Shown: in pieces, positions 5,773 to 53,782 of the stretch
Position numbering within the stretch: the first letter of the stretch is position 1
Layout: every line of letters begins with the position of its first letter
Source: Aplysia californica
Lineage: Eukaryota
Assembly (NCBI RefSeq): GCF_000002075.1
Contig: NW_004797304.1
Location: 975,328-1,038,506, forward strand
Direction of reading: 5' to 3'
DNA length: 63,179 nucleotides
Made by a program: the position numbers and the translations under genes
Notes under the pieces: model-generated
The model's input: only the letters and a program-made list of their open reading frames with translations
The model's database searches: none
Told to the model about the DNA's origin: nothing

Positions 5773-7906
5773 TTAGTTATAATAGTTAGGTTGAAACTGC
5801 CCATCTCCACCTCCTCCGCGAGGTCGCTGCTGACCTTGAGTCATTCTGGGCTGGATACCTCTTGGGCTGGGCCATCGGTTTGTGGGGTTAAACCGAGGGG
5901 AGCCTCCCTGCCCAGAGTTTCCCGGTGTGGGGATGAGTCCTGCCCCCTGGGAGCGGGCGGCAAAGTTGAAGGCCTGCACCATCCCAGCCAAGGCCCGCGG
6001 CATGTTGTTGGGCATGTTGTTGGGCATATTGTTGGGCATATTGTTGGGCATGTTGTTAGGCATGTTGTTGGGCATATTGTTGGGCATATTGTTGGGCATG
6101 TTGTTGGGCATATTGTTGGGCATGTTAGCTCCCATGTTGCTGTGAGGCGTCATCAGGAGAGCTCCCTGGGCGTTGCTGGCGCCTTTGTTGAAGTTCATGT
6201 TCTGAGCATTGTTTCCGCCCCCTCCTCCTCCCCCACCACCACCACCCAAGTTATGATTGTCCCTGCCCGCCATCTGCTGAGGGCTGTTCGCATTGGGAAA
6301 CATTCCCGAAGAAGAGATGTTGGACTGGCCAAAGTTCTGCTGGGAGGGATTCTGCATTTTGGGACGAGTCTGGGTGAAAGAGGCGCTCCCGCCCTGAGAA
6401 GGATTTACATACGGCAGAGGCCGATACTGACCTTCGTCCTGGATGGGGACTGTGATGAGGTTGACGTTAGTCCGTGCTTGCGGGTTCTGCAGGCCTGGCC
6501 CAGCATTGCCCTGAGAGCTGTTGAAGTTGTCCACATTTTTGCTGCCCCCTGAGAGGGGAGAAAGCTGTTGGTGGCCGCCGGAACCCGGAAGCAGCTGAGA
6601 CGTTGGCGACGGGATCCGCTGGTTGTTCATTTGCTGCATCATTCCCGGCGATATCCTGCCCTGATTGTACAGCGGCATATTACCGTGGCCCTGATGCATA
6701 GCATTCTGGCCTGAGGACATTGGACTGTGTCCATGCGACATGGGTCCATGGCCAGTTTGCATGTCCCTACGACTCTGCGGAAGGTTATGTCCACCTGAGC
6801 CGTCCAGCCCCTGAAGGCCACCGTGCCGCTGTTGCATGCCGTGTCCCCCCTGCGGAACGTTATGTCCTTGCGGCATGCCATGTCCCCCTTGCGGCATATT
6901 GAGTCCCTGTTGCATGCCGTGTCCCCGAGGCATATTGTGTCCTTGCTGCATGTTATGGCCCTGAGGCATATTATGCCCTTGTTGCATGCCATGCCCCGGC
7001 ATGTTATGTGCTTGCTGCATGTTCTGCCCTTGTTGGACGTTATGCGCCTGAGGCATATTGCGTCCAGGCTGCATCTCTAGCCCTTGCTGCATGGAGCCGT
7101 GTCCTTGGTGCATGATGCCCCCCTGCCCCATCTGCATAGCTCCTCCATGGCCTGGCTGCATGTGAGGGGAGGCCAGACCCATGCCCTGCTGGTGCTGCTG
7201 ATGGTGTTGCATCTGCTGCTGCTGCAGCTCCAGCTGTTGTTGTTGAAGCTGATGCTTATGCTGATGCTGCTGTGAAAGTGGCACCATGTCCAATGGGCGG
7301 TAGATGCTGGGCTCCGAACCACCTTGAACACCGGGGCTGCCAAACGGCAACATGGAGGGAGCCATGGAGCCCGGGCTTGGGGCGGGCGGCACCAGGGGAG
7401 AGCCCCCGTGGCCTGCCGAGGAGGAGGAGCCTGCCACAGAGGAAGCCACCTGTCGCAAATCTCCCAGACCCGGGATAAGGGGTGGGGCCGGGCTAAGCTG
7501 TTGTCCGACCGGCCCGCTGTGGGAGGAGGAGGAGGAGAGATTCAGCCCGCCACCCGCCGAGTGACCTCCCGGCACTTGCAGTGGTGGGGCCAGGTGAGGT
7601 GGCAGACCTAATGAGTTCACAGACAGTGCAGGGTTCCCAACGGGTTGTTGGGTCGCCTGCTGCTGCGCGGCCTGCTGTTGGGTGAGAGGCAGCTGGAGGG
7701 AGGCCTGCGAGGTCATCGTGGCTGGCTGGGAGGAGGACTTGCTCTCCGGCTTCGGCATATGACGATGGGCAATGTGTGACTGCAGATCCCTCTGCGAGAG
7801 ATACGTCCTCCGACATCCTTTCGTGTTGTGTTTCGGAGCGCCGTGGGTGCACACAAAAACAGTTCCAAGAGCAGACTTCTCTACTTTCTGTACTCTAGCA
7901 CCACAT
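5773..7906 (-). CDS. CBLL1: Hakai last coding exon: end of RING, C2H2 finger and long low-complexity C-terminus
   Basis: Acceptor (T)nCCTGTTCCAG ending at 7907; contains [19 protein letters not shown]; stop TAA at 5773-5775. Confidence 0.93.
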
Positions 7907-10900
7907 CTGGAACAGGAAAAAAAAAAAACCCTCATAAAAATCCAAAATTAAGCAAGAGTGAAAGTTAAAGATGCTCACCCATTTGCACTTCAGAAAATGA
8001 ATTTGTTTGACACTTAAACACTGAAATGAGGACACAAAATTGAAGGCACAGCAAAATGTAAGTATCATATATCCTTTTCAAATTTGAAAATAGCTGAGGT
8101 ATTCAAACAACGTTATCCAAATATTTGGGACCCCCCAAAAACATAGGAACTGGTCAAGTTTAAGCAATGCATGGAGTATGTAACACAGAAGTCAATCAAT
8201 AATACAACACAAAACAAACATGCATAAAATAACAAAAGCCATAACACCCTCTTTCCCACACTTCCTTACTTTGTTGGTTTCTCTTTCCTGCATTATCTAA
8301 ATCTTCATATTAACTTTTATTCATCTTCCTCTTGCTACCTGAGTACACTTGTGATTATTATAAGCAAAATTTCACTCCATAGTATCACTACTATCATTCA
8401 CAACGCAAACACAAGATGAACCAACCGTTTGCATGTCTTCTCACACTTCCGGGCACAGTCAAAGCAGAAGATGTGCTTACATGGCAGCTGGGGAAAAAAC
8501 CCAGCGAGAAAAGAGCTTTAAACAGGTTGTGTGACCAGCAGGTGCGACTTATACAGCTCTTTTCAATTTTTTGGGGGGGTAGAGGTTTTATGGCGCCCGC
8601 AACTGCATAAGGTCATATGAGCGCCAAGGGGTGGATCTCAACAGAGAAGTCCTTACAGGGAATCAGACTTAGACTGCTCACCTCTCTAGCTTCAACAGCA
8701 CAAAGTCTGCTTCGACTATCAAGGCAAACCGGAAATAGCGGGTCATCAGAGTGTGACAAACAAACAAAAGAAGTCGAGTTATAATGACGATAGTAAGGAT
8801 TAGGAAAGAAAAAGCAGCAGTTTCCTGTTGTAGTTCAGGCACAGTTATGAGCATGACATCGTTGGATCAGCCCATTTACAATTCTACTGTGCATTAGAAC
8901 GAGAAATGTCCCCCCTTTGGGAATGGCCTAAAGACACTTCAGTCAGTGGCACCACCCCGGGGGGTGTTATACAGCTCTACTAGGTAACATTAGCAAAGGC
9001 TATTTCAGCAACCAGAAAGGAGTCAGGCCAAAGACATCTTTTAGTTTAGTTTTAGTAGAGATTTTACGATGCTTGCAACTGCATAAGGTCATATGAGCGC
9101 CAGAAGATTACAGGTGCTACAAGGGAGTAACAAACACAAAAAAAGGAGGGGAAATAAAGACGATAGACGTTGATAGGAAAGAAGAAGCAAATCACACCAG
9201 AGCAACCGCCAACCACCCACAAAGACATCTTTAACAAAATTATAAATAAACAATTTTCTTAATTCAGAGAAGCAAAAGGAGTAGACCACAGAAACCAGCA
9301 TCTTAAGTAAATAGGAATAAAACGGTAGATACAGATTGGAGAAAGATCAAGTGCACAGATAAAAATGATATTAAAATAGCAAAGATGAACCAAACACAAC
9401 ACCCTCTAGAGTACATAAACAGTTCATAAGCAAACTCCTACACAGATTAAGAAAAGCAAATCTCAGGCCATTATCACAAAATACATCATTTCAAAAGATT
9501 TGATTAGTTTTACGCCCTCTTACTCCAATTTCAAAAGTAAAACTCTGGGCTCCTTATCTAGAGAGTACACATTCCATCCACAAAATAAAAATATTACTTT
9601 GAATTAAGAACTGAACTTCTTCGAGTTGGTGAAGTCTGACACCAGTTACGCAGCCATACACGTTGCCACTCGAAGTAAAAGTCATAACATAAATAGGCAA
9701 AACGTCCATATGAGCCTTCCTTTTCTACTTAGCTCCCTTTTCTCTTAATGATCATAATATAAAAAGTTGTTATCCGTAAAAATACCAGCTTTTTGGCTTT
9801 CGCAAACTGGGAACACTATTAATAAGAACGTTATTTTAAAAAATAAGTACTGACCATACGTCCATAGACTAGAATGGGAAGTTCACACAGTTCACACAGG
9901 TGAATGACTTTGTCATAAATCTTTTCTCCAAGTAAATCAACCTGAAAATACAAAGCAACAATGCAAAATAAAACACAAATTAATGTACTGTATTACTGTT
10001 AAAAGTTAAGCTGACCATTCTTACAGCTATCAAATTAAAATTTTTAATCTAAAAAAAGCTGAATGGCCTTCTTACCAACTTAAAATTAAGGTAAAAATAA
10101 CTGACTAGCAAAAAGCAAAGCTGTGGTACACAATTAAATGAGAAGAGCAACAAACAGATGAAACTGGAACCTTTAAGTGGGCTGGCATCCCAATTCAACT
10201 TTCAGTGATTTTTAAATCTATAACATATTTACTACTAAAAAAAATCAACTTCGCAGTTTCAAGTAACAACATTTCATCCCACAATTTAAACGAAAAGTTA
10301 CGAGATAGTAGTGTCAGTTTTTCCCTTGTGTGATGAAGATGAGCCCACAAAAAGAAAAAAATACCTTGTGGTCCCAGCGCAGAGGTTGATTCTGATGCAG
10401 TGGAGCCAAGTTGTATGCTGCCTTCAAAGTGGGATTCTCCACAACTTCCTCCTCTGAAGAAAAAAATCATACTTTTCTTTTAAACCTGGCCAGCTTCGAA
10501 TAACATAACCTGTACAGGTGGTCAGAACTGAATACCATGAGCCGTAATGCCAGTAAGACTAAACTAATAAAAGTTACGTCGAGGGGACGGATTTCATTGG
10601 AATCAAATCCAAATTCACATTTCATATTTGCACTGAGTATGATCCAAGCATAATGAAAGACAAACGTAGAATCAGATTATAAATATATATTTGTGCAGTA
10701 TAACTATATCACAGTAATCACACTTAACTGAAAATAAGAAACGAAAATAGAATTTCATTCCTGTCATCACACTTTAGAAGCAACATTTAACTTTGAGAGA
10801 GAGGAAAAAAACCCAACCCCAGTCACTATGATCGAGAAGAGAAGTGGTAAAAAGTTTTAACTCTTAAAATAATGATCATAAAGCTTCCTTTGTTCCCAAA

Positions 10901-14705: not shown

Positions 14706-15643
14706 TTAGACCTGCATGTAGGCTTGTTTTTGCTCCTTAGAGCCAAGATGGCCTTCTTCCTTTGAGTAGAGTAGTCCAACAGCTTTAAGAAATTCTAAGA
14801 AAGGCTGCTGCTTTCCGAATTTTCTTTTTTTTTTAAATTCGGCAAGGTAGCCGCTTATTAAACTCCTGGCAAAACTCTTTTTGCTTTTTTTTATGCAGTG
14901 CCACGTTGTTTCGATGTGGTTGGTGTGTGCACCAGTTTCGGGGTCCTTGAAATTCTTACTGTGATTTACAGTTTGGTGTTGGTACCCCAACGTTGCGATA
15001 GTGGAGTATCCCTTCCAGCAGTCAGAAATTACAACCGACCCTCTCCTAATATATTTCTCAATTAAGGGAATCAACGTTGCTGCTGATCGGTCCTCCACCA
15101 CCACAAAAAAACAATTTTCCTTATTGTCTCTTTCAATCCCCCCAAAAACCCACACTCCATCTACATGTTTCCCCCTGTGATATATTTTCTTTTCCCAAAT
15201 TTACTTTCATCTATCTCTACTACCACACCTTCCCCTCCAATCTGACTGTACCTATCACTGTCTAAAATATCCACACATACATCCCTACAAAAGTTGAACC
15301 AGTCTACTACAGTCTTTTCACTAACCCCACTGTTTATTGGAATAGTCGGCTGCCCAAAAATAAATAATTTTCACTATTGTCTCTAAAGTTAAATGTGATT
15401 TTGAGAAATTTAAGCTCCCAGTCCGGATAATTTTTTCCTGCACTGTCTGTTCTGGCACCTCCAAATTTCCTTATCCACAGAAACCGAACTGTCCTTTAAA
15501 GATGAAAAATATGCACCACAACTACACGTTGTGTCCGAAAAATCAAATAAAAGTTGTCTGCTTCTCAACCACTCCTTCAGTCCATCGGAATGTAAAATCT
15601 CCGCTAAACGGAATAAGCCAAAATAGTCATGATAGGAAGCCAT
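14706..15643 (-). pseudogene. Frameshifted IS1595/ISXO2-like (Merlin) DDE transposase
   Basis: N-terminal Zn-ribbon (CSCG...WRCQNRQCRKK), middle VVDWFNFCRDVC and KFGKRKYHRG, catalytic region WVFGGIERD...SDCWKGY...HQTVNHS...HTNHIE; broken into several frames. Confidence 0.85.
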
Positions 15644-22535: not shown

Positions 22536-22752
22536 ATGGACAGCACCGAGTCCAAGTCAACTGTTGCTGTAGAGCTTGTACCAGACGCTGAACTGTCTGC
22601 TCCTTCTAATTTATCTGCTCTCAGTGATTTGAATGAGACGGAAACATTTGCTAATGATGACTCTCCTGGCTCAGATCAAGATCAGGCAGAAAATGACAAG
22701 ACAAATGATGACAGCTTGGGACCAGGGGAAGAGGCTACATCTGACAGTGCTG
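22536..22752 (+). CDS. MBD4: MBD4 coding exon 1 (acidic N-terminus)
   Basis: Acceptor at 22520-22521, ACAATGG start, G|GTAAGT donor. Confidence 0.8.
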
Positions 22753-25700
22753 GTAAGTTGAAGATTATTGGTTGAAAAAAGGCTGTTTTTGGGCCTCGTG
22801 TGCTCTTGAGACAACAGGCAAGTAAAATGGTTGTCCCATTGGAAATTAAGTTTTTCAGAAGATGAAAAAGTACATTCTTCCCTGTTTTCTTTTTCCATCT
22901 TTTTTTTCCTCTACATTTTTAGTCTTCTTTACTATAGATGTGTATTTTCCCATATCAGCATTGCCATGCATGATATCATCAGACTTTTTGTAAAGTAATA
23001 GAACTGTGATCTTTGGCTGTACAGTTTAGTGACTTTTAAGCTGGGTTTCCTTTTCTCATGTGACTCCTAGTAAGGTTTACGGTTTTGTTGATTTGAGAAT
23101 TTATAAGACATGTTTGAAAAACATTTTATATGATTAAGATTTGTATCAAATTGCTTTATTGCTGTGCAGCAGAGAGAGCCAACATTGAAAACATAAAATA
23201 CTATACACTGTGAAATGCTTGTGGCCTATATTAATGTTTAGAGAGCAAAATGTGATTATGATGTATAAAAATAGTGAGCTCATAGTTGTTCTGTCAGGCG
23301 TAAAATTTGAAAGTAGCTAAAAGCTGACATATTTAATTATATTTCTTTTGTTGAAAACATTTTATTAGATCGAAGCCAAACGTCTGAAGTGCCAGTAACA
23401 GAGGAAGATGCCGATGAACAGACAGCTGAAGAATCTGAAGCTGTGACTCAAGATGTTAGCGAGCAGGAAGAAGCAGCAGAGTCTAGCGCTGTGACGGAGG
23501 GTTGTGCTGATGTGTCCGCAGAGTCAGGGACTCTTCCTCAAGCTGTGGAACCACCAGAGGAGGAGGTCACCGGTGCGGAAGCCGGAAGCTCAGTTGCACC
23601 CAAGCGGCAGAGGAAAGCCACGGCTAAAGTGTAAGGATCTTTTGCAGCGCCATCCGCACAACTTGAAGTATTTAGTCTTGCGTATAAAAGTACAAATATT
23701 TTGCTTTATTCAGCTCAAATGCCTCTTGTACAGAGCCACCCTTCAGTTATGCTCGTGCAGTTAGCCATTATTGATAAAGCTGTAAAACCTGGCCATTAAC
23801 TGGGTAAAATTTGCATTAAAAAAATTATGGTGGAACAGTGCAGACCTGCCACTCATCCCGATTTAGTCGGGATATCCCGATTTTTTGCCCCAAATCTTAA
23901 GCATCCTGATTTTCCCGATTTCGATGGCGTGTATCCCGATTTTTTGTCCCAGTCTGCTGTTGTGCCGGATTTTTCTAAAAACTTACTCTGCCTTCTCCTT
24001 TATCGCGGGAAGCACCCGTTGAACTTTTTGTCAGTAGGAACTCTGAGCACTATTTCCCGAAATATCGATGCCGCATTTAGTATTGACTCGCCCCAAGTTG
24101 TGTGTGATCTTTGCCCGCACTCCGATGATAGCCTGGTAACTGTTACAATTTGGGACATACAAATAATCGATAATATTCGTAGTTCCGCTGTTACTTTCAA
24201 TACAAGCCTTGTCCGAGGTCTGGTAACTGCGCGTTCACGCCAAACACTCGGACGAGCGACAGTGTTTCTAACCCTTATGCAACTACATGTAAGTGCGCTG
24301 ACAAGACTAACATACAGCCATTGTCGTTGCTTTAGTCTGAACACATTATGAGGGAAGAGATTTGTTGGTACAATTGGTTGGTCGGCCGCCATTGTTTTCC
24401 TAGAGTACTAGAAGTAGAACGACTGTCGCTCATCTGAGAGTTTTGTGTGAACGCGTATTTAAGTTAGTCAGACCCGTTAATAAAATAAATTGTTTCAGTC
24501 GCGCATTCGCGTCACGTGACATGACATCGCCGTGTGAGTTCTGCGTGTCGGGGACCGTCCGTCGTCCGTTGACAGGGTAAACGTAAGTTCATGTATTTCG
24601 GGACTTATTGGTGGGGGGGTTATAGACACTTGGACTAGGAGTACTTGACGTGATGCTTCAGGATTTACAAAAAATAATGATAACTCGCCCGCGCGCACAC
24701 ACACACACGCACGCGCGTGCATGCAAACAAACAAAGACACTCAGAGGGCATATAGGCCAAGTAATTTATGGACACCCCTGGAAAAATTTTAAGTCAGCTT
24801 TGGCAGTCACCTCAGTGATTTGCTGTTGATCCCGATTTTTTACTCCTAATCCCGATTTTTTCTCCCTGAGATCCTGATTTCGAGGTTTCATAGAGTGGCA
24901 GGTCTGAACAGTGTTTAAAAAGTGATGGATCCACCAGGGCAGTGCTACTGACTAAAGTGTCTTTAGGCCATTCCCAAAGGTGGGACATTAACATGTTCTT
25001 ATCAACAGTAGAATTGTAAATGGGCTGATTTATCGATGTCATGCTCATAACTGTGCCTGAACTGCAACAGGGAACTGCTGCTTTTTCTTTCTTAATCCTT
25101 GCTATCGTCATTTTTCCTTTATTTCTTTTGTATGTTTGTCAGTCTTGTCACTCTCTATTTCCGGGGTGCCTTGATAATCGAAGCTGACTTTGTGCAGACT
25201 TTGTGCGTGGGTGGTTGGCGGGTGCTCTGGTGTGGTTTGCTCCTTCTTTCCTATGAAATATCTATCGTTCTTATCTCCCCTTTTTCTTTTTTATGTTTGT
25301 TACTCTCTTGTAACACCTCTAATCTTCTGACGCTCATATGACCTTATACAGTTGAGAGCGCCGTAAAACCTTTACTCATAAAAAAAAAGACTGTGCTTTT
25401 GAAGCTAGAGTGGTGAGCAGAGTAAGCCTGATTCCCTGTAAAGACTTGTCTGTTAACATCCACCCCTTGGCGCTTGTATGACCTTATGCAGTTGCGAGCA
25501 CAGTAAAACCTTACTAAAACTAAACTAAAAAACTTTAAAATGGAATTTAGAGCCTTTTCTTTTTCTTTCTGTTTTTTATTTTCTTCAGATGTTTTTTCTT
25601 TACCATTGATAACTGATAAAGAGGTCCACCCTCAAGCCCTAGGACTGTTGGATTAACAACAACTGAAAAACAAACAATGTAGATCAGAATCTGGGATTCT

Positions 25701-28700
25701 TAAAGAAAACTTTGGTCACCCAAGAAGCTATTTGCCTTGCTTTCATAGACATGAATTTGATTCCATCTTAAGAAGACATTTTATCAGGTACTTTTGTCAT
25801 TTAAGTAGGATACCTTGCACACTGTTTGAGTTGGCCTCTGCAGGTAGAATTGAAATAGCCCTGCCTCCTGTATGATCTAAACTGTGTCGTGGAGGCATAA
25901 AATGGTTTCTTTTAATAACCATACCTATTTAATAGATTGGATTTTTTTTTTGTATGTACAGGCTCGAGATGGAAGAAGTGAAGATGCACCCAGTAGTGAC
26001 CCCTGGTCCTGCAAAAAGAGGCAGAAAGCCGAAAGGGAAAGCTGTACCAAAAACGCCTGAGCCAGCCAAACAAGCAGAACAGTCAGCGAGCCCTGTGGTG
26101 GACTCGCCGGCAACACCAAGAACGAAAACCAGAGAGCTGCCAAATGGATGGTCCATGAAAGCCGTACAGCGTCTGACTGGTGCATCTGCCGGCAAATATG
26201 ACATCTATTATTTCAGGTCTGTTGTCAGTTTCGTTATATGAAGTGATGGTTTACAACAATTCTTAAAACCGGAATTATTATCAATGTCAATTCCATTTTA
26301 ACAAAAATGTTCACCCTGGATTTATTTTTGGACTTTTTTCTCACCTGGCAGAATTCTGTTCAGACTTAAGAATCAGGTTTTTGACCTTTACATCCTGAGA
26401 CCTATTTCTTTGGGAAAGATGCAGAAGTTATGACTGTGAGGGGAGGGTGTGTTTTAGAATGCTTTGTGTACTTTTTAATGTATCTTTTTATCTCTTTAAT
26501 ATGGAGATGCTTTCAACTGTCTCTTCATGGTGTTTTACTTTGCTGTGGTAATGCTGTTTCACTTCTTTTTATGCTTTCTTTTCTTTTCTGTTCCCGCCCC
26601 CTCACTGCCCCTGTCACCTTAAAAAAACAACTTTTGTCCTCTAGTGTAGTGGGCACCTATATTTGTGTTAGTTTCTTTCAAAGTTCTTTTTACTGCTTAA
26701 GCACAATTATGTACCGGGGTCCATGGTTCAGTTTTTATGAAAGCACAGTTTGGAGCATCAGTCGCATGGGTTTATGTAGGTAGCGTAAACATGGCCTCGC
26801 GGGCACTCATGGCCTTCCGACTGCGTGGTATTGGTGAAATCGGGGTAATTGCGATCGCTGTTTCTTTGCTCTTTCGCTATAAAACACCAAGTGCCGTACA
26901 CCTTGTAAAAGTTCAGCTTTTCTTCGTTACAATGATGTAAGTTGTTTATATGTCCAATTATTAGGAGCTGGAGAATCGCCGACGAAAGTGAAGCCCCTCG
27001 CGGTCGGAATGTGTGGTCGGCCGGTTGAAAAATTGATACGCGTGCATTCAAATGCTTCGCGGAACGAGGGATGATTAAATACAGTCTTTTCATTGGCGAA
27101 GAACTGTAGAGCTTTAAACGGTCTTTCCCGTGGTATATATTTGGCCTTTGGCATTTAAATAGAAAGCTTTCAAAAATGCTGTCAAAATGTTGAAAGATCA
27201 CTTTTTACATAAAATATGTAAAGCACCGGCTTAAAAAAGGTATTAATTAAAAGATCAGTTCATTTTCTATAAGAATAAAGTAATCAGCTTGGAATTATTT
27301 TTCATCAATCCTTCCGCGAGACTCGGAAAGCATGTGACCCCGCACGCGGGGTACACTACAGTATAGAGCAGACTCGCTCGCCGCGGGGGCCGGTGCGGCG
27401 CCGGCCGGGTCAATGCTCGGTGTTTTTGTCGAAATAACGACAGGTCATCGTGTTTGAGGTGATAAAATACTGATTTGTAATGATCTCACAGTCTTAAAAA
27501 AAATTAAGCTCCATTTATTTGTTATAGTGATTGTACTCTGTTAATGTGGAGATGTTTGGTGCACTTGGTATTCTTTTATTGTCTGTCAAACATGGGGTTG
27601 CAGCCAGTGACTGACTTTAACAAATTTAAACAACTATCTTTTTCTTAAAAATTGACTGAGTGGTTAAAGAATGGTACCAAAATGCTCAGTCGATATAGGC
27701 CTTTCAAATGGAACAGATCAATTTGGCATACAGCTACTTTGAAAATTTAGTGTCTGGTACCTAGTTTATGTTGATTTTCTATAGCAGTTATGAAATCATT
27801 TATTATAATTTTTTTTTTTATTGAACAGCCCAGAGAATGTCAAGTGCAGGTCCAGGACAGATGTTACAAACTACGCTGTGAAATACAAAGCTGACCTAGA
27901 CATGGAGCTCTTTGAGTTCAGCATGTCAAAGCTACAGCAGAAAGGATTGGTTGACACAGATGATGTGGTGCTGGCGAGGAAAAAAAGCAGCTCTGTTCCA
28001 CAAAAGGCTGAGAAGGCTCAGGCTCTGAAAGTGAAGCCAGAGAGTGGTGTGAAGAAAGCCAAAGGTCGGCTGAACAATAAATCCCTGTTCAAAAATGCTA
28101 AACTGTCTATAGCGGAGGGAGAGGGGCATGTTCAAGCAAAGTCAAAAGGCTTATTCTCTAAGAAAAAACCTGTTGAAGTGGAGGACAGCCCGCAGAAACT
28201 ACAGAAACTTGTAATTAGAATGCCCTTTGGTAGTAGTAGCAAGGGAAAAATGACCAAGAAAGAGTCTAGTCAGATCTGCTCATACTTTGCTCCAGACGAA
28301 ATGGCAGCTGAGGCTGAGATGGTGACGGAAGAAATTCCAATGGAGGACGAGCAGTTTACAAAGTTGGTGGGAAAGGCTACTAAAAGGAAAGGGACTTCTC
28401 CCATCAAGGGAGTGCCAGTCAAGGGTCAACCAGGGAAGAAAAAGAAAATGGGGCGCCCGAAAAAGAACGCTAATGACAGCACTGAAAATATTTCTCAAGA
28501 CACTACGGCGAACACAAGTTTGCTGGGCTCGTCTTTAGATGCCTCTGCTATGGACACCACAGCTGACACCAGTGTTGTAGATCCATTCGCTTTCCCTGAT
28601 GATGATGATGATGTTCCAGAACCGAGTTCTATGCTAATGTCAAGTATAAAAAGTTCTGCTCCTGTACAGAAGAAAAAAGTAGGCCGCAAACCTAAGAAGA

Positions 28701-31700
28701 GAGGGCGCAAGCCCAAACAAAGCCCGGCAGCCCAAGTTGAGGCTCCGTCAGAGAGTAATGATGCTGAGGAACCTGCTACTGATGAGGTCATTCCTGCTCC
28801 GGAGATTGTTGCTGATGAAGCAGCACCTATGGTTGTAGAAGAAGAGCAGCCGGCAGCCCCTGAGGAGACGCCGATGGTCAGTCCCCCACCTGTTGTAGCT
28901 GTTGACACACCAGTTGTCAAGAAAAAGAGAGGCCGTCCGCCGAAACGAAAACCGGAAACAACCCCTGTTCCCACTGAGCAGGAAACCCCTGAATCCACGT
29001 TGCAGCAGACTGCTGATTCTTCACAACTGGAAACTCCTCCTGCGGAGAACGAGTCTGCAGAGGTGACACCAAAGAAGAGCGGTGTGGAGGAACTGTCCTG
29101 GGAGGACTACCAGAAGCAGTTGGGAGGTGAGAAGGAAGAACAGAAACCTGACACATCTCCACATTTAGACGACGAGTACGATGACCGGAAAAGTCTGCCA
29201 GATGAAGATACAGAGAATTCCATCTCAGACTTCCTGGCCCTTCAGAGCTATATCAAAGCCCCCAAATTTTTGACGGCTGATTACATGCTCAGTGATGGTA
29301 AGGAAGTTCAAATTAAAACAAATTATGTCTCCCTGATTTATAGAGAAAGTTTAAAAACTTTGTTCTGGTCTTTTGTAAACTCTAAGCTTTAATGAGCTCA
29401 CTTTTAGGCTTCAAGTGAAATTTCTCTTGGAGTGGAGTACTTTTTAAATGGCTACAGTCAAACCTGTGTAAAACGGCCACCCATTGTCATGGAGTTAAGT
29501 GGCCGTATAACACAGGTGGCTGTCTTATTCAGGACTGATCAAAATGAAGAAAGCAAACCATTCCCTTTTGAGGTCCAAACCGGGATTGATCTCAGGCTTT
29601 GGACTGCCGTAAGGCAAATTAAAAAAGGTTTTTGTTTTCTTTTGAAAAAGGAGGATTTGTTGCTGATTTTGCGCAAGGGCAAAATAGACGAATGTAAGAC
29701 AATGAAAACTGAGTGCCATAGTTAAACAAACACTGAGTCGCCACCGCTCATACAAGCGATGCTTTTGTCGCAAGTTAACGTTAACATCCATTGTTACTTT
29801 GTTACAGTTTAGGTAAACAAAACAGTGACCAGTCACCTCACATACCATTTGTTTATGAATTGTGGGCGCGGCTTATAGATTATAACGAATCACATGCTAC
29901 CTTAAACAGCAGTTGAAAATTTATTGTTACCCGTTGGTCAACTTGGGTAAACATTCATTGGAGAGACTAACAATAACGACAGGTTATGGATTATGACGGC
30001 CCATCCACAGCGCCACGGGCAGTTTAAAAATTTATGACAAAGCATCTGGCGATGTGTGACCACGCCTGGCCATCTGTGGCAGCATGGGTCTCAATATTCC
30101 GCTATTTAGCGGATTTCCGCTACTGCCATTTCCTCCTCTAAACTCTGCTACCGCGACAGCGGGTCAGTCAGAAAGAGAGTTGCTGGAAGCAGAGTGACTG
30201 CCAGGCCTCGGGAATTACCCGGGAATTCGAAAAAAATCGCAGAGACGCGGGAAAATACATGGAAGATCTCGAATACTATTTGAAAACCAAATCCGATAAC
30301 GTCTTTAATTTCATTTTTGCCGGTCGCGATTGTGATGTTAATTCGGCTTTTCCCGGTCTGAGAGTACGTTTCATGCGAACAAGCGGCTATGGCGGCAAGT
30401 GGAATTGTTTATGACACCGAGGCTCGACCGGAAAATCAAGATCTCAGAAATTTGTCTGTAAAAGTCTGAATACGCAACATTTGTAACATGCAGGTTCTGC
30501 ATTACAAACGTGGTGTCGCCATGAAAATAATGTTCGTCACTGTGCTGTCGCTTGTGGGGGCAACAAAAAAGAAAGAAAAAAAAGTTATACAAGCGTCTTG
30601 TCGGGCTCGTCATTGTGACCAGTCAATGAACCTGTGCGCGTTCTGAGCGCTGCGAAGTACAGGACTCCGGAGTGGGGGGAGATTATTGATTTTTAAAAAA
30701 AAGATACACTCGGGGATGGGGGGAGGGCTGGACACAACACCAGAGGACAAAAAAAGAAAAGAAATTGGAAGCAAATTTTAATGTTTAGAATTTTGATTAC
30801 TACTACAGCTCTCTGCAAAGTAAAGTGTGCGTTAGTGCATGCCTTGTGTATAATCGGGATCCGTCATAACTACTTGTAAGCGTGTTAATGAACTTACGGC
30901 AGGGGCCTAAGTGTTGGCATTTCATTGGATGGGTGACAGTAAATTATGTCTCTATATTTTAGCTTTTTGTTCAAGATTCGCAGATTTTCAGTGTCACTGC
31001 ATCTTGCCCTCCCACAGTTCTTACACCTCTCACACTGAATAGGTTTACTTGAGCTATTCAAGTTGTTACTCTACTTTGAATTTGAGCATCAATTTTGTCT
31101 TTCACGTTTATTATATGAATCATTACATCCAGACTGGTTCATGACAGTCGATATTATGGGTCTAGGCCTTTTCCCAGGCTCAAAACAAGATTCATTTTTA
31201 TATAGTTTATATATGCAGGCGAATATGATGAAGGTAAAATATAAATAAGTCGCACAAGACCACAGTGCGCCTCCACTTTCTGTACGTAATCAAGATTGTA
31301 AATATTTGGTAAGTGACTCTTACTCTTACTTGAAATTATCTTCCAAACCCTCAAATTGGTATGAAATAACCTTGCTTTGATAAATTGATGGTTTTTATTT
31401 CAACATTCTAGGGTCCAACAGTACAATAATAGTGGGTGTCTCGCGAAAATGGGCTTCTGTCGCGATCACGCGGAAAGTTCCTCCTTTTTAAAAATTCTGA
31501 GTTGAGACCCATGGGCAGGTAAATTTGGCTGTAGGCTGATAAAATAAGGTGGCCGCGGCCACATTGGACAGGTGATCGTTTTACACAGGTAAGATACATA
31601 TATTAAAAAAACACAAGGGGGGAAATGAAAAGTGGCCGTTTGTACAGGTGACCGTCATGGCAGATTTGACTGTTTAAACGTGCTATTGAAATGTAATGAG

Positions 31701-34700
31701 TTTATAATTGCCTAGTGATTTTGTTGGGGAAGAGCAAGATTATTAAAAAATAGCTGAAGAACGGAAGGATTTATGTACATAAACTGTGAGATCTCCATTA
31801 TTCCCAAAAAATTTGTATTCTAGAAAAAAAACTTAACCCAAGTATCGTTCTGAAAATACACTAAATCAATTGTTTGTTTTATTCTAAGTAGCTTCATGTA
31901 TGTTTCATGTGTTCTATTCCGTTATGGTTTGATTGCGAAAATTTTAGTCCCTTTGAGCCACTGTCAGTTGGGCACTATATTAATGCATTTTGGTATCATC
32001 AGTATTAATTTTTTGTTTGGCCATTTTGAGTCATAACAGAAGTTAATTTTTCTTCTTTCTAATTTGTTCGCAGCAATCAACATGAAAAGCAAGTATTTCA
32101 AGAAGTCCAACACAGACAATCTGGCTCCACTCAAACTGAGGCGAGATGATAAGTGGGTTCCTCCCCGCTCCCCATTCTGTCTCGTACAAGAATCTTTGTT
32201 CCACGACCCATGGAAGCTATTGATTGCAACTATTTTCCTCAACAAGACTACAGGTCAGTGGTCTTTTTTTTTGGTCCCATGTCCTGATTTCGGTGCCGAT
32301 ATTTGTAGGTTATGTAAAAATGTGTTGACATGGTGCAAGTTGTTCTGTTTCAAGAAAAACAAAACAAGAAAAACGCTACAAGAAAAAGTGGAGTTGTTTA
32401 TGGGTGGTGATCGTGGTGATGATCGCTTATAGGTCAAACAAATATCCGCCAGCAATTCCCTTTGTGGGAAAGGTGTTTTAAATTCAGTACACCCATCTTT
32501 TTTCTGTTATGAAGTGTTCGAGACAGCCCTGTCTAGCCCTGTGGTGCTGTGTCAAAACAGCCCAGTTCCAATTTTTAAGAATTGTGTTGAAGGGGGTGTA
32601 AAATCATTTTCAATCATTGTGTGCTACTCTTTAGTAAGTTACTCCGTATAAAAGTTTACCTTTGATAGTGTTGCACCTGCTGGTTAGTATGTGAATGAAG
32701 AGTAGCTGATTTTTCTGATTCTTTGTTGAACAAGGTTGAACTCATTGATAATGGCCATGTAATGTATTTTGGTATAACAAGACTTAAAGACTTGCACGTA
32801 AATGTACATTTTTTAAAAATTACTCAAAAACAGCCAGCTGCTCTGTTTGCATAGGAATGACAAGAATGTTTCCAAACCCAGCTCTACTTCGTGAAAAAAA
32901 ACCTTGATTTGGTTATTTTGAAGATTTATATTTTAACAAGCTGGGCCTCCTTTCGATGAAAGGAATGATCGGTGCATTAACATCAACTGAAAGTCATTGG
33001 CCTACTATATTTACACTCTTTTGGAATGGAGCAATAAATCTTGAGAGAAAAGTGACCCATGTGTTTCCAAGTTGCCAAATATATAATAGACAAAGGAGTC
33101 CAGAAAAAGCAATGATGGGCATCAAACGAAAGGATCACAGTCGAATTTAGAACGAAGTAAAAAAAACAACATGAGGCTAGATCTATACGGGTTGCACACT
33201 TAAAATAGTGCTCAGTATTGCGCAACAATGCGCGATGGTATCGAACGGAAGTACGGCTTGAAATAAACAAACCTGGCGGATTTTCTAAAATTAGAGACAG
33301 AAGCGTCAGCCTACAAAAGCGATCGGCGGAATAAAGAAATTTAGCTATTTGCACAAAACTGTCTCAAAACTGAAAAAACGAAAGGCGTCATGATCTGGAG
33401 AATATTTTAAAGAATCTTTTGGTGAAAACCACATGTCGAGTGATGAAGCCATTAAAAAGCCTTTTGAATAGCAAAATTCGGCCACCACAAATAGATAATA
33501 GAAAGTTGAGGCTGAAAGATGGCGGGTGGTTGGAGGGTGCCACTGGTAGGTCCTTTTTCTTTTCTTTCCTTCTGTTGTTTCTGTCTATTCTGTCTTGCTT
33601 CTTCACTGCACTATAAAGACCATTATGATTTTTCTTGGCGAGTCCAGGCACTGGTGGGGACACTGTTTGGTAAATGAGGAAAGAGCAGTGCATTTAGTAT
33701 TTATTGATAAGTTATTGTTCCTTGTGTTCCTTTGTCAGGTCGCCAAGCAATACCCACCCTGTGGAAGTTCCTCAACCGCTGGCCGACCCCGGAATGTGTT
33801 CACAGTGACGACCTTGAGGAGATGGCTTGCCTCTTGTTTCCCATTGGTCTCAACTATACTCGATCCAAGACCATCATCAGATTCTCAGGTCAGTGCTGAG
33901 TTTTAAAAAATAATTTTCCAATGCTTTTTTGTACCATTGACAATATAACTGATCAAGAGGTTCACCCTCAACCACTGGGCATTGGGCAGAAATGCTGAGT
34001 TTAATGCATTGTATTGGAAACTGAGGATTAGGGAAAATCAAATATTTGTGGTGTGGTACTCTGTTCACTAAAATACAGTACTAAAGTACTGTGCATCTTT
34101 CAAAACTTTTTTCCTCTATCAACATTGACTGATACAAAACGAGTGAAGAGAACAATGAAAGGGTGGTTATTTCATATGGAGGGGGAGGGGGGGGGGTTGT
34201 TCTCCAATTTTGTAATGATATCAGTATTTTTTGCCTTTTCTATTTTTGCTTATTCGTATGTAGAGTTGGTCTGGAAAGGGTGTGTAGGGTATGCTGGACT
34301 GCAAGGCAAAAGAAAGACACCTTGGTTAAATAAGGCTGTCTTTGATTTTCTGCCTGTTGGAACGAACATCATGACATTATGTGAAATGCTGGCCCCGCGG
34401 AAAATTGCATTTTTGAAATAGAAAAATTGCAAAAAATTGCAAGGTAAACCGCCTAAAAATTGCAAAAAATTGTAACCTTCCCATCCCAGGCGCATTAATA
34501 CGGGCTAAACATTTTTAGTTAAAAAACTTGACAATTTTGAGTACCGGTAGCATAAAAGCAGCACAGCCTTTTAAAAAATCATGACAAACAATACAAATTC
34601 ATCAAATGTTATTAACATTTACTAGTAACAACACACGAGTACATTAACAATAAAGTTATCAACCAAATATAATATGATAACACGTGACACAAAATAACGG

Positions 34701-36799
34701 AACCCTCGGTTTTCGTAATAACTTTTTAATGAAGGCATAAAATTTGACCAAATTTAGTACATACAGGGTACTTGGTTCATGCAAAAAATCTAGAAGTGTA
34801 AGAGGTTTAGTCTATAAAAAACAAACAAATTGACGACAGATTTTCGAAACAACCTCTAAATACATAATAAGCTTATGCTCCAATCAAATCAGATCCTGTT
34901 CTATTTTTCTCTTGAAACCTTCGATACAATGGTAATCTGTATTTAGATCTATTTCAGATTTTTTCTGTTTTAAAACCGGGATGGTATTGTTTTAACACTA
35001 CGTCTAAGTCAAATCGTAAAATACAGCAAATTTTTTCCCCCCATTTATAATTTATAAACAATAGTAATACATGTACTAATGTACATCTAGATCATTTCTA
35101 TAGCACCCACTTCCATGTGAACGCTGCTTAAGGCGTTTTACATAATGGGATGTTTACGTACACGGTACGCGGACACCTAGCCTCAGTGTCTACGTACACG
35201 GTAAATGGCAACCGGGAACGTAGTCTCAGTGTCACGTACACGGTAACCGGGCAGTTAAGAATTCCAAGTTCATTTTTTGTCTTCCGGTGTTGCCTTCAAC
35301 TCCAGCCCTCCCCCGACTGTACATAAAAAATAAAATCAATAATTCCCCCATTCCGGAGCCGTATACTTCGTAGCGCACAGACTTTGAATGAACTTTGGTG
35401 ACCCCAACCGGTACTCACAATGTAATGCGAAAGCACAGGTTCACTGACTGGTAACGATGGCGAGCCCGACAAGACGCGTGTATAACTTTCTTTTTTTATT
35501 TCAACAAGTGACAGCACAGGACAAATATTAGTTAATTTTCATTCCGGTGGGTTACCGTGTATGTAGACACATTCATCATGTACGAACAATATTCACGCGC
35601 GCGCACACACACTCACGTACACCTCACACACGCACACACCTACTTTCTTATCACACGCGCACGCTTACACACATTAGATAAAGGCCTAGCCCAGAGAAGG
35701 CCACCTTCTCGGCCTAGCCTATGTCTCAGTTCGTGTTGTACATGATGCATTCCGGCCTGAATTTCCGGTTATAGCTTTTAGAGTACGCTCAGTAGGCTTG
35801 AGCTGGGCCGATACCATGATTTACGAAGGCCTCGGCTCTGTACTCGCACCATTTCGTATTAAAAATTCTGTTAAAATTAAAGCCTTGATATATTTTTGCC
35901 TAAAATTGCAAGAAATTGCGAGAATTGCAAAAAATTGCGGGTTTATTGCGGAACTTGACGAAAAACGCGCAAGACCGCAATTTCCTGGAGGGTCAGGAAA
36001 TGGTACCGATTAACGTCATGTCATGTTCTATACTGGAATGGTGTCATTTGTTTATCTGTATTGAAGTGTTTGTACCCAGCTTAAGAAAGCAAAAGTCTAT
36101 AAGAATGAGATCCTGTAAATTGAAGTAGTTTGTCCTTGTTTCAAGTTGATTTTTTTCTCTTGTTTTTTCCAGAGGAGTTCCTTACAAAAAGATGGACATA
36201 TCCCATTGAACTCCATGGCATTGGGAAATATGGCAATGATTCATATCGGATCTTCTGCGTCAATGAATGGAAGCAGGTGAGGCCAATTTTTTCAAATCTA
36301 AAATGTCAGACATTTGTTCATCTTTTGCAATTATTGTTTCTTTTACTGTTGGAGTATTTTTTACTTCCCCTCTATCTTTCTAGTTCCATGTTCTACAGCT
36401 GTGCGCAAGAAAATTTTAAAGAATCTACTGAGACTAGAGACCATTTTATATACAGCAGCTGTGTTTTATCGTCGATTACATTTCTTTCTCAATCATGGAC
36501 AATGTTCAAGGGGTATTGCAGTATTTCACTGGTTCATAATCTAATGTTTGCTGTTCCCTTTTGAAAAATTAAGTATACTTCTTTCCTGGTGTAGAGGAAA
36601 TTCGCTGAACGGTTTTTGATACTTGATAAAGTTGTGGTTTTTAACATTGTTCCTTTTTGCATGATCTATGTCGAAATGGAGGGAAATCTCAAACATATTG
36701 TCCAAACTTTTACCTCTGCAGGTGGAGCCGACAGACCACAAGCTCAATGACTACCACCAGTGGCTCTCAGCCAACCAGAAGCAGCTGGGATTAAGCTGA
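22536..36799 (+). CDS. MBD4: Methyl-CpG-binding domain protein 4 / MeCP2-like (MBD + AT-hook-like motifs + HhH G:T/G:U glycosylase), ~904 aa
   Basis: join(22536..22752,23369..23630,25962..26216,27829..29297,32074..32253,33739..33888,36173..36276,36722..36799) = 2715 nt, GT-AG, phase-consistent. [45 protein letters not shown]. Glycosylase [33 protein letters not shown]...[37 protein letters not shown]. Confidence 0.92.
23369..23630 (+). CDS. MBD4: MBD4 coding exon 2
   Basis: TTTTATTAG acceptor, GT|GTAAGG donor; phase fits both neighbours. Confidence 0.8.
23841..24906. mobile_element. Non-autonomous TIR element (P/hAT-like)
   Basis: TIR CAGACCTGCCACTC / GAGTGGCAGGTCTG; 7-bp TSD AACAGTG; multiple subterminal TCCCGATTT motifs. 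Confidence 0.8.
24928..25532 (+). mobile_element. Family A retroelement interrupted by a family B copy (~25207-25388)
   Basis: The A sequence breaks at AGACTTTGTGC and resumes at AGACTGTGC after a complete B copy; both end in the shared tail. Confidence 0.8.
25962..26216 (+). CDS. MBD4: MBD4 coding exon 3 (KRGRKPK motif and N-half of MBD)
   Basis: [27 protein letters not shown]; AG|GTCTGT donor. Confidence 0.92.
26712..27762 (+). repeat. Intronic repeat homologous to ~20750-22420
   Basis: 27200-27540 matches 20755-21050 plus 21923-21970; 27525-27760 matches 22264-22420. Confidence 0.7.
27829..29297 (+). CDS. MBD4: MBD4 coding exon 4 (C-half of MBD, MeCP2-like motifs, long linker)
   Basis: [16 protein letters not shown] completes the MBD; G|GTAAGG donor at 29298 in phase with the next exon. 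Confidence 0.88.
29455..31672 (+). mobile_element. pogo/Tigger-like MITE carrying a nested TIR element
   Basis: TA-CAGTCAAACCTG ... CAGATTTGACTG termini; repeated CAGGTGGCCG motifs. Confidence 0.7.
30083..31513. mobile_element. Non-autonomous TIR element (P/hAT-like) nested in the MITE
   Basis: TIR CATGGGTCTCAA / TTGAGACCCATG flanked by a GGCAG direct repeat. Confidence 0.65.
32074..32253 (+). CDS. MBD4: MBD4 coding exon 5 (start of glycosylase domain)
   Basis: SKYF...[34 protein letters not shown]; G|GTCAGT donor. Confidence 0.95.
33511..33630 (+). repeat. Family D interspersed repeat (head GGGTGGTTGGAGGGTGCCACTGG, related to family B head)
   Basis: Reverse copies near 44190-44298, 46130-46225, 46380-46490 and 60700-60775. 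Confidence 0.55.
33739..33888 (+). CDS. MBD4: MBD4 coding exon 6
   Basis: [19 protein letters not shown]...[19 protein letters not shown]; not recovered in frame by the ORF track. Confidence 0.93.
34389..35996. mobile_element. Non-autonomous TIR element with 6-bp flanking direct repeat
   Basis: Imperfect TIR CTGGCCCCGCGGAAAATTGC / GCAATTTCCTGGAGGGTCAG; GAAATG on both sides; AATTGC(A/G) subterminal arrays. Confidence 0.65.
36173..36276 (+). CDS. MBD4: MBD4 coding exon 7 (HhH motif, catalytic Asp)
   Basis: [34 protein letters not shown]; CAG|GTGAGG donor. Confidence 0.95.
36722..36799 (+). CDS. MBD4: MBD4 last coding exon
   Basis: [25 protein letters not shown], resembling the vertebrate MBD4 C-terminus. 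Confidence 0.92.
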   Translation: MEPTDHKLNDYHQWLSANQKQLGLS

Positions 36800-51089: not shown

Positions 51090-53356
51090 TCAGCAGCTCA
51101 TTCCCAGCTCATCCACTTCCTTTTCTCTCTCCTTCTCCACATTGTTCTGCTGTGCTTTCAGGTACTCCGTGTACATTTGACGCGCATGGTGCAGCACACG
51201 CTGCGCATTGTGTCGACGCACAAGCCGGTCAAAGTGCATGGCAATCTCCTCGTAACACATGCCATTGCGCACCACTACGTCCCTGTGCATGGTGAGCAGT
51301 GTCAGACACAGGAACATAAGGAAGGGGTTCCCTGAGCCAAACTCCTGCGGGGGAGGAAGACGCGACGGGTCCCTGATCACGGGCTTGGCACTCGGGCTGG
51401 ATGGCGTGGTCTGTGCACTTCCTGTAGAACTCTCCAATGACTCGGTGGCTTCCTGGCATTCTGAGAGGTGCGAATCAGAGTAATTTTTGGCCATGGCTGA
51501 AACGTCCTTATTGCTAGACACACCATGTAGAACAGGAGCTGAGGGTACGTGTTTAGGAGGCATGCCTTTCTTCGGAGACGCCCCAGGAGATGTGGGAACA
51601 TCAGGTGTCGTATGGCTAGTAGACCGGCGTATAGGCGAAGCCAGCAATCGCTTCATGCTTTGAAAAATTCCAGAGTTTGAATCAGAATTATTGGCTACAA
51701 CTGCTTTAGAATTGGCAGGTGCCTCCGCTTTGATGTAGACTACATTACTAGTGGTAGTCTCTGGTGTTGTTGGGACAGAGCTCAGCTCGCTGGACTGGTC
51801 ATCCTGTCCGCAAGTATTCTCCGAATTGTTGCTGTTGGTGTCCAATGACAAAACGAACTGCGCTTGTAGTTCAGAGCCATCAGAAGACTCTGAGACAGCT
51901 GAGCTCACACTCCAAGTGCGCTCCCCATTCGATTTGGTGAAATGGAAGTCCGAGCTCTCTTCTATAGGAATGGAATTACTGGGTATATGCATACTGACAC
52001 CGCCATATTCACTGTCCTCGGGCACTATGGTATCCAAACTGTCAAAGCCATTTTCCTTGGGGCTAGAATCAACTCCACTCCCTGGATTATCAAGATTGTT
52101 CTTTTTCGAATCTGAATCCGTATCACAGCTACTTTGACTTGTTTTATTCTCATTCTCATCATCAGCATCTTCATCATCATCATCACCAAGGCAAGATCCC
52201 TCCTGTAGAACCTGATCAATACTGCTGGATTTCTTCTGCAATGACCTTGTGAGAACGTTATCAACTTCTGGAAAATCTGATCCCTTGTCTTCTATATCTC
52301 CTGGAGACGTGTCAAACGAGGACATGACGCTTGTGTTGTTGGAGCTATCATGACAGCTCTCGAGGCTCAGGTTGTTGTTCGTCGAGGGCCGAGGTGCGTG
52401 AAGGGTAATTGGCTTGGCAGCCTGCGCTACCCGGTGCAGGGCCCCGACCCGCCTCATGGCCAGGAGTTTGGCGTACATGGCTTGTTTGATAGAGAAGGAT
52501 GGGGTGCAAGGTGAGGTGGACAGTAGACGGCATGAGTAGACAGGGTCAACCAATTCTAGCTCCGTTTGGGGTGGGCTGGGTGGCAGCGTCGCCCACATGA
52601 CCTCCAGAACGTACAGTGCATCAGAGAAGGGAAACTCCCGCTTTAGCTCCAAAAGGAACCAGCGGTAACAGAAAAACATATCTCCGGCAGAGTTCTGCTC
52701 TAAATATGCGTGCAGTTGAGGATCGTACATAGCCAGAACCTCAGACAGATGCCGGAACTTGAGCATGATGGCTGTGCCCTCCACCGTAAAGTTCTCCCTC
52801 AGTCGGTTCATCAGAGCGCAGAAGCAGATAGACGCCTGACCCTCATCTTTCTGAGTGACCAACAGTGGTGATGCCAGGTCGCTCATTCCCTGGCAGTAGG
52901 AGACATCCGGGTGCGTCAAGGCATACGTGACCAGCAGGTGGAACAGCGACAGAGTGTTCTCATTATCTTCGTTGTCTTGACTCCCCTTGTAGAAGTCGTG
53001 AGCGCGGTCTGTGCGGAGCACATCCTTCTTCACCATACTAGTCACGTACTTCACCTCCTCCGTAGCCGTATTGCTCTTGAACTTTTCTCTCCACTCCTCT
53101 CGCAGACGCCTGTACTCCTCCCCTTTTCGCTTCATGTATTCGTAACGGTCATTACCCGACATGTTTGCTGGGAAGATGTTGAGCAGATGCCGCCACGCCA
53201 CTCGTCGTAAGGAGGGTTCGATCCCTCCCTGGTAGATGGACAGTCGGAATTCGTTGGGTCTCATCATGAAGCCAGCGCTGTCGAGGTAATTGTGGAACTC
53301 CATGTCAGACATCGGAGGCTTGATGGGTTTGATGTCACTGTCAGATTGCTTGAAGC
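51090..53356 (-). CDS. TBC1D25: TBC1D25 last coding exon, duplicate copy (probably assembly/haplotype duplicate)
   Basis: Nearly identical to 56925-59191 at offset 5835; only a few clustered substitutions. Confidence 0.7.
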
Positions 53357-53782
53357 CTGTCAGAGGTAATCACAACCAACAGTAAAAATGTCCATTAGGG
53401 AAACAAACTTAACAAATGTTATAGCAATGATATCCATCGAGCTGTGTAAACCTCAACACATAAGAACATCTCTCTGAACTGGACACAGTAAATTTTATGA
53501 AATTTTTATAATGGAAAAGTGAAACACTGATTCACAATTCAGGGGTAGTTTTGAATGAAGAAAAAAATCCACTACTACCTTCCCAACTCTTTTACTATTG
53601 ACCCGCCAATGTTCTGACAACTTTGGTATTATTACAATACAAATTTATCACACAATAGAAGACAAATCGATCACATAGAATACCAGAAAAAAACTAAGGT
53701 AAAAAGAAAGAGAAAAATACCAGAGAGAAAGGAAAGTAGATACAGCGAGTGATGAGAGAGAGGACCTACAATAGCCTATTAA

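Follow-up and report, generated by a model that had tools for sequence, protein, structure and literature searches.

The window analysed here is a stretch of 63,179 nucleotides from Aplysia californica, and its main feature is a forward-strand gene at 22536-36799. The gene has eight exons with canonical GT-AG ends and an open 904-aa frame, the translation of which is identical to the database protein P0001. The source assigns P0001 to A. californica and labels it "neurofilament heavy polypeptide [Aplysia californica]", an annotation that can be corrected, as the protein is the product of an MBD4/MeCP2 gene. Coding exons 1 (22536-22752, with the ATG at 22536) and 2 (23369-23630) encode an acidic, disordered N-terminus, with a pLDDT below 50 in exon 1. 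Exon 3 (25962-26216) contains the basic motif KRGRKPK (26014-26034) and the first half of an MBD (26134-26216). Exon 4 (27829-29297, 1469 bp) completes the MBD, which ends near position 27925, and also encodes a conserved short motif and a long disordered linker with further basic motifs. Exons 5-8 (32074-32253, 33739-33888, 36173-36276, and 36722-36799) encode an MBD4-type HhH glycosylase and end with the stop codon at 36797-36799. A previous, sequence-only reading of this DNA had counted 904 residues, in agreement with this model, but had the gene start at 25962, thereby omitting coding exons 1 and 2, which the 904 residues include. All the motifs that it named were found where it had located them when checked on the reconstructed translation.

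The splice joins from exon 3 to exon 4 and from exon 4 to exon 5 are present in RNA contigs of three out of four runs (three studies), and the fourth run gave an unspliced, DNA-like contig. Two spliced contigs of 3.15-3.2 kb extend ~830-900 bases to either side of exon 4 and thus have room for the whole coding sequence. In an AlphaFold2 model (45 sequences) only the MBD and the glycosylase fold, and 622 of the 904 residues have a pLDDT below 50. The frame of exon 4 runs open for 92 bases into intron 4, to 29392 (29298-29392), and a fragment from a relative (P0122) stops just past the equivalent of exon 4, where a short stretch of unrelated residues closes it, the form expected from read-through into the intron. 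The three spliced runs contain no contig reading through intron 4 into a glycosylase-less isoform, which, since contigs drop rare forms, is no evidence that the isoform is absent; coverage over the exons in raw poly(A) runs is too shallow to judge read-through. At position 28655, all four contig runs and X1 differ from the assembly (T>A), changing S521 in the linker to T; this is either a common allele or an assembly error. An intronic repeat at 25207-25530 is covered by many RNA reads of both strands that continue into unlike sequence and are reads from other copies.

Elsewhere in the window, a large reverse-strand exon (5773-7947) begins with a C/H zinc finger and has a tail rich in Q, G, and M; it is transcribed away from the MBD4/MeCP2 gene and resembles Hakai/CBLL1. 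Two near-identical 759-aa TBC-domain frames, TBC1D25-like, lie on the reverse strand at 51090-53369 and 56925-59204, 5835 bp apart and separated by an N gap, and represent either a tandem duplication or a haplotype mis-assembly. At 14706-15200 (reverse strand) there is a transposase-like, ISXO2/IS1595-like fragment.

The first folded domain of the protein, aa 218-277, is an MBD that scores 21.3 bits with Pfam PF01429 (cut-off 21) and finds its best matches among solved structures in the MBDs of MBD4, MBD2, and MeCP2 (E 1e-9 to 4e-8). Alignment with MeCP2 MBD chains places R230, D240, and Y242, encoded in exon 3, and R252, encoded in exon 4, at the base-reading residues, presumably R111, D121, Y123, and R133 in human MeCP2 numbering, as the sequence-only reading had claimed. 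These residues are common to MeCP2 and MBD4 and are therefore not diagnostic of MeCP2. The domain is divergent, with M225, C251, and S276 in place of the R, F, and T of fish MeCP2, suggesting that methyl-CpG affinity of the Aplysia MBD may be lower. M225 and S276 fall at what we take to be the Rett positions R106 and T158. The sequence identity to fish MeCP2 (32-33%) is no higher than that to vertebrate MBD4 (29-39%). In an MBD tree built from 68 columns, with no MBD2/3 outgroup and with three of 39 proteins left out because the anchor pattern missed them, 20 of the 33 inner branches are open. An extra helix (aa 277-282, pLDDT >85) follows the MBD in the AlphaFold2 model.

The second folded domain, aa 751-904, matches human MBD4 structures with a phmmer E of 4e-67 and solved MBD4 domains with a Foldseek rmsd of 1.1 Å at 67-69% identity. 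It contains the string GIGKYGND (36217-36240) and the active-site equivalents Q773, K792 (arginine finger), Y864, and D884, for which we take Q449, R468, Y540, and D560 to be the human MBD4 counterparts. The arginine finger is K and not R in Aplysia, and likewise in 11 of 94 vertebrate MBD4 records. The HhH glycosylase noted earlier from the sequence is present, and the Aplysia protein would be expected to excise T or U from G:T and G:U mismatches. The glycosylase exon occurs at one locus in the Aplysia genome.

An MBD at aa 218-277 and an MBD4 glycosylase at aa 751-904 identify the gene as the known single invertebrate MBD4/MeCP2 gene, and it is an ordinary invertebrate forerunner of MeCP2 and MBD4. 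As the MBD tree is mostly open, orthology rests on architecture, glycosylase, and literature, which support the previous assignment as a co-ortholog of MBD4 and MeCP2. MBD and glycosylase in one gene is the ancestral state of the invertebrate "Mbd4 group" (Planques 2021, PMC8330077). The suggestion that MeCP2-like reader modules and repair activity are joined here holds, with the repair activity a predicted one, for the MBD and one MeCP2-type motif, and the combination is an ancestral family state and not peculiar to this animal. According to a 2024 review, Biomphalaria yielded no MBD4 homologues (PMC11050768); contrary to this, P0003 and P0005 are such homologues.

In addition to KRGRKPK, the protein carries the basic motifs GRPKK (28451-28465), an 11-residue motif at 28691-28723 that resembles AT-hook 2/NLS of MeCP2, and the AT-hook-type RGRP motif KRGRPPKRK (28925-28951), all encoded in exon 4. 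Matches to the 11-residue motif are mostly confined to heterobranch gastropods. We searched 26 invertebrate proteins with fish MeCP2 segments as queries, using 500 shuffles per protein. The AT-hook-2 string PKKRGRKP was recovered in six heterobranchs and Solemya (7/26), with none of the 500 shuffles reaching the Aplysia score. AT-hook 1 was recovered in one of the 26, and Aplysia does not have it in the MeCP2 position. Neither the RPGRKRK motif nor the Rett-critical NCoR/SMRT interaction domain (NID) was detected in any of the 26 proteins, and the best NID score in Aplysia was reached by 306 of 500 shuffles. In amphioxus, the NID query picks out a PLKKRK string in P0162 (24/1000 shuffles) and a best site elsewhere in P0163. 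Copies of [KR]GRP number three to four in eight other heterobranchs and zero in ten motif-bearing non-heterobranchs (Octopus, Lingula, Lineus, a tick, Haliotis, and five of six bivalves); these hooks likely act as AT-hook or NLS elements. The MeCP2-like modules proposed earlier are therefore borne out for the MBD and one further motif, but not for the patchy AT-hook/NLS-like motifs or the NID; the basic motifs may or may not share descent with the hooks of MeCP2.

The further motif is KLVIRMPF (aa 371-378, 28205-28228), a short linear motif in a disordered region, spanned by a 19-residue stretch of exon 4 (28181-28237). It shows no secondary structure in the AlphaFold2 model and is flanked by stretches with a pLDDT below 50. 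In an alignment of 45 sequences, every row of which was chosen as a motif carrier, mean identity is 0.63 at aa 371-380 and ≤0.31 in the other 10-aa blocks of the linker (aa 291-760); apart from the motif block, no part of the linker is conserved as strongly as the MBD. The conserved pattern is K-L-[VLF]-[VI]-[KR]-[ML]-x-F, with L372 as the sole invariant column and near-invariant columns at K371, R375, and F378. Heterobranch-specific conserved blocks (aa 319-337 and 386-400) lie around the motif within 27926-28290. The counterpart of the motif is human MeCP2 219-226, inside the N-terminal part of the TRD, which we take to begin at about residue 207; the sequence-only reading was thus right about the TRD but not in placing the motif at its very start. 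The full human MeCP2 sequence was not among the sequences used, and MeCP2 was represented by three fish proteins and by the human peptide carrying residues 219-226 that is printed in PMC9798253. A search of the ESM Atlas with aa 355-400 gave no usable match, and proteins shorter than 497 aa searched with aa 212-400 yielded two fragments and no MeCP2.

A scoring matrix trained on 18 spiralian proteins alone recovers the site in all three fish MeCP2 proteins (18.6-20.4 bits, 0/1000 shuffles each), and so upholds the earlier expectation that the motif is conserved in invertebrate orthologs and aligns with the MeCP2 TRD. The same matrix finds the motif in six of six amphioxus records, 14 of 15 held-out molluscs, four of five chelicerates, two of three echinoderms, and one of two Priapulus proteins; single proteins from a crinoid, a spider, and a gastropod lack it. 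Carriers named include heterobranch, caeno-, veti-, and patellogastropods, bivalves, Octopus, the brachiopod Lingula, and the nemertean Lineus, among ecdysozoans two ticks, a scorpion, a sea spider, and the priapulid Priapulus, and among deuterostomes a crinoid, a sea urchin, and amphioxus. For several of the invertebrate carriers, the choice to name them was made once their scores were known, so that the group fractions are not unbiased. A further set of 125 representatives, taken without selection, comprises 67 proteins with an MBD, of which 12 score at 0/200 shuffles and two more at 2/200, and 58 non-MBD controls, of which none passes. With the fish peptide as query, the same site is found in 24 of 26 invertebrates, and the score is significant in 11 of the 26 and not in the other 15. 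Vertebrate MBD4 does not carry the motif (0/80 records with an MBD out of 94, maximum 6.4 bits; 0/3 for hagfish, lamprey, and shark), and pancrustacean MBD4-type proteins are without it in seven of eight cases, the eighth having a weaker score upstream of the MBD.

In the carriers, the motif lies 29-133 aa past the nearest upstream MBD, and 49 aa past it in fish MeCP2. This variable spacing, together with the absence of secondary structure in the AlphaFold2 model, argues against packing of the motif on its own MBD. A related idea is that the motif aids nonspecific DNA binding as part of human MeCP2 205-257, a conserved DNA-interacting region; the preprint reporting this assigns the DNA binding mainly to RPGRKRK at 250-256 (bioRxiv 2025.06.17.659564), the motif matched in none of the 26 invertebrates. 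We regard either role as improbable.

The motif is only eight residues long and the MBD tree is mostly open, and hence a common lysine/hydrophobic motif might have arisen separately in invertebrate MBD4 and in MeCP2; in the mayfly protein P0264, a string resembling it precedes the MBD (4/1000 shuffles). Such convergence is nevertheless very improbable, given the same post-MBD position in spiralians, ecdysozoans, and deuterostomes and the failure of all non-MBD controls. It is made unlikely above all by amphioxus, where the site reads T-P-G-K-L-V-V-K-M-x-F, nearly the vertebrate form, and lies between two RGRP hooks, which makes homology the simplest reading. The comparisons thus support homology of the motif with MeCP2 219-226, its conservation throughout the bilaterians, and its loss in vertebrate MBD4.

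The order of events after the vertebrate duplication can be read from this distribution: MeCP2 would have kept the motif and lost the glycosylase, and MBD4 would have kept the glycosylase and lost the motif. Two further pairs of proteins show a possible vertebrate-like split, though the models may be partial. In Priapulus (P0268 and P0198), one protein has MBDs and the motif and no glycosylase, and the other an MBD and glycosylase and no motif; a scorpion and a spider protein (P0270 and P0194) divide these features in the same way.

Next, we consider what the motif might bind. In humans, the pocket with which the ADD domain of DNMT3A takes up the H3 tail also binds MeCP2 216-226, an interaction that needs K219 and K223 and is strongly reduced upon removal of F226 (Kunert 2023, PMC9798253). 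The binding is weak; a mutant with a KD of 29.3 µM is stated to bind 4-fold more weakly than wild type (PMC9798253). The three human residues correspond to K371, R375, and F378 in Aplysia, and the coincidence of the ADD-critical residues with near-invariant positions of the motif points to an ADD/PHD-type, H3-tail-reading pocket as a lead. The Aplysia genome encodes DNMT1 and DNMT2, while two ADD profiles for DNMT3 gave no match and that of ATRX, serving as a control, did; as the assembly is gapped and was searched exon by exon, absence of DNMT3 is likely and not proven. A review likewise sees no indication of DNMT3 in Aplysia (PMC11050768). Two intronless bacterial-type C5 methyltransferases on small contigs (G000:C4072 and G000:C2252), one beside a helicase-like frame, are likely bacterial contamination of the assembly. 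With DNMT3 not found, the conserved partner of the motif is likely another protein, and the ATRX ADD becomes the first candidate in Aplysia, one that we would still call unlikely when taken singly.

The conserved core of the motif is hydrophobic and would sit more readily in a hydrophobic groove than in the acidic pocket of an ADD, which counts against the ADD lead. Ligands of the HP1 chromoshadow domain follow a PxVxL/LxVxL consensus, and L372-x-I374-x-M376 fits this type. The motif might therefore insert as a hydrophobic strand into the chromoshadow dimer in the register L-x-[VI]-x-[ML], tying a methyl reader to H3K9me3 heterochromatin. A chromoshadow domain is encoded in the Aplysia genome and MeCP2 binds that of HP1, but the binding was mapped mainly to MeCP2 1-55 and was weaker elsewhere (PMC2018631). 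Moreover, many molluscs have I as the central residue, and we consider HP1 less likely than the ATRX ADD. Strand addition to an ET-fold domain (BET ET or the AHD of AF9/ENL), which would link the reader to transcription elongation, is slightly less likely again. The pattern L-x-[VI]-x-[ML]-x-F resembles the AHD ligand consensus LxVxIxLxxV/L (PMC8022399), but the trailing xxV/L is not conserved in the motif. AHD and ET domains are encoded in the Aplysia genome. MeCP2 co-precipitates AF9/ENL and binds AFF4 via its TRD; yet the preprint reports no direct MeCP2-AF9 binding in vitro and no effect of ENL knockdown on the association of MeCP2 with SEC (Sonn 2024). Likeness to HP1, ET, and AHD ligands was judged by consensus patterns only, and a single-peptide search of solved structures with the motif gave no match at E 10. 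The remaining, sizeable share goes to unnamed partners such as AFF4.

Taken together, we find it probable that this is a single MBD4/MeCP2 gene in which the linker motif shares ancestry with MeCP2 219-226 and likely serves as a docking site for a conserved chromatin protein. The MBD would likely bind methylated CpG, and the glycosylase, joined to it by the long disordered linker, would act on the mismatches. A more far-reaching proposal, which we advance tentatively and at somewhat less than even confidence, is that residues 219-226 of MeCP2 form a docking motif shared throughout the bilaterians that predates MeCP2, has a conserved partner other than DNMT3A, and travels with the glycosylase-less reader at each split of the gene (in vertebrates, apparently in Priapulus, and perhaps in arachnids). 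The function of MeCP2 is usually reduced to MBD and NID; if the proposal holds, 219-226 would add a third to these two functional sites in the Rett protein, and Aplysia neurons would offer a place to study it. A 2025 preprint describes MeCP2 205-257 as highly conserved yet uncharacterised (bioRxiv 2025.06.17.659564). An eight-residue element shared by spiralians, ecdysozoans, and deuterostomes, which MeCP2 retains and MBD4 has dropped and which persists in an animal with no DNMT3 found, would point to an older partner and names the exact residues to mutate.

In the literature searched, the accessible texts contain no statement that the motif is shared with invertebrates, the most relevant study of MeCP2 evolution being outside this scope, and the string KLLVKM occurs in one paper only. 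In 2021, de Mendoza and co-workers reportedly described amphioxus MBD4/MeCP2, aligned invertebrate MBD4/MeCP2 with MeCP2, and noted conserved residues outside the MBD. Their extended data may already show the motif, and priority is uncertain.

Compared with known systems, the Aplysia gene combines features that vertebrates divide between two genes. The Aplysia glycosylase is 67-69% identical to the solved domains of vertebrate MBD4 (rmsd ~1.1 Å) and keeps their active-site Q, Y, and D, whereas vertebrate MBD4 (MED1) does not have the motif that Aplysia has. Vertebrate MeCP2 has no glycosylase, in contrast to Aplysia, which in turn has neither the NID nor RPGRKRK of MeCP2, nor an AT-hook 1 at the MeCP2 position; both share the SAGKYD loop, the four base-reading residues, the 219-226 motif, and a later PKKRGRKP string. 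The amphioxus records P0286 and P0287 do not contain the GIGKY motif, while the three spliced Aplysia runs show no glycosylase-less isoform. Relative to other invertebrate MBD4/MeCP2 proteins, that of Aplysia is longer at its acidic N-terminus, carries several basic hooks, and has the divergent MBD of a heterobranch, but it agrees with them in combining MBD and HhH glycosylase in one gene, in its one glycosylase locus, and in the post-MBD motif. The gene class is already known, and the Aplysia gene is an ordinary member of it.
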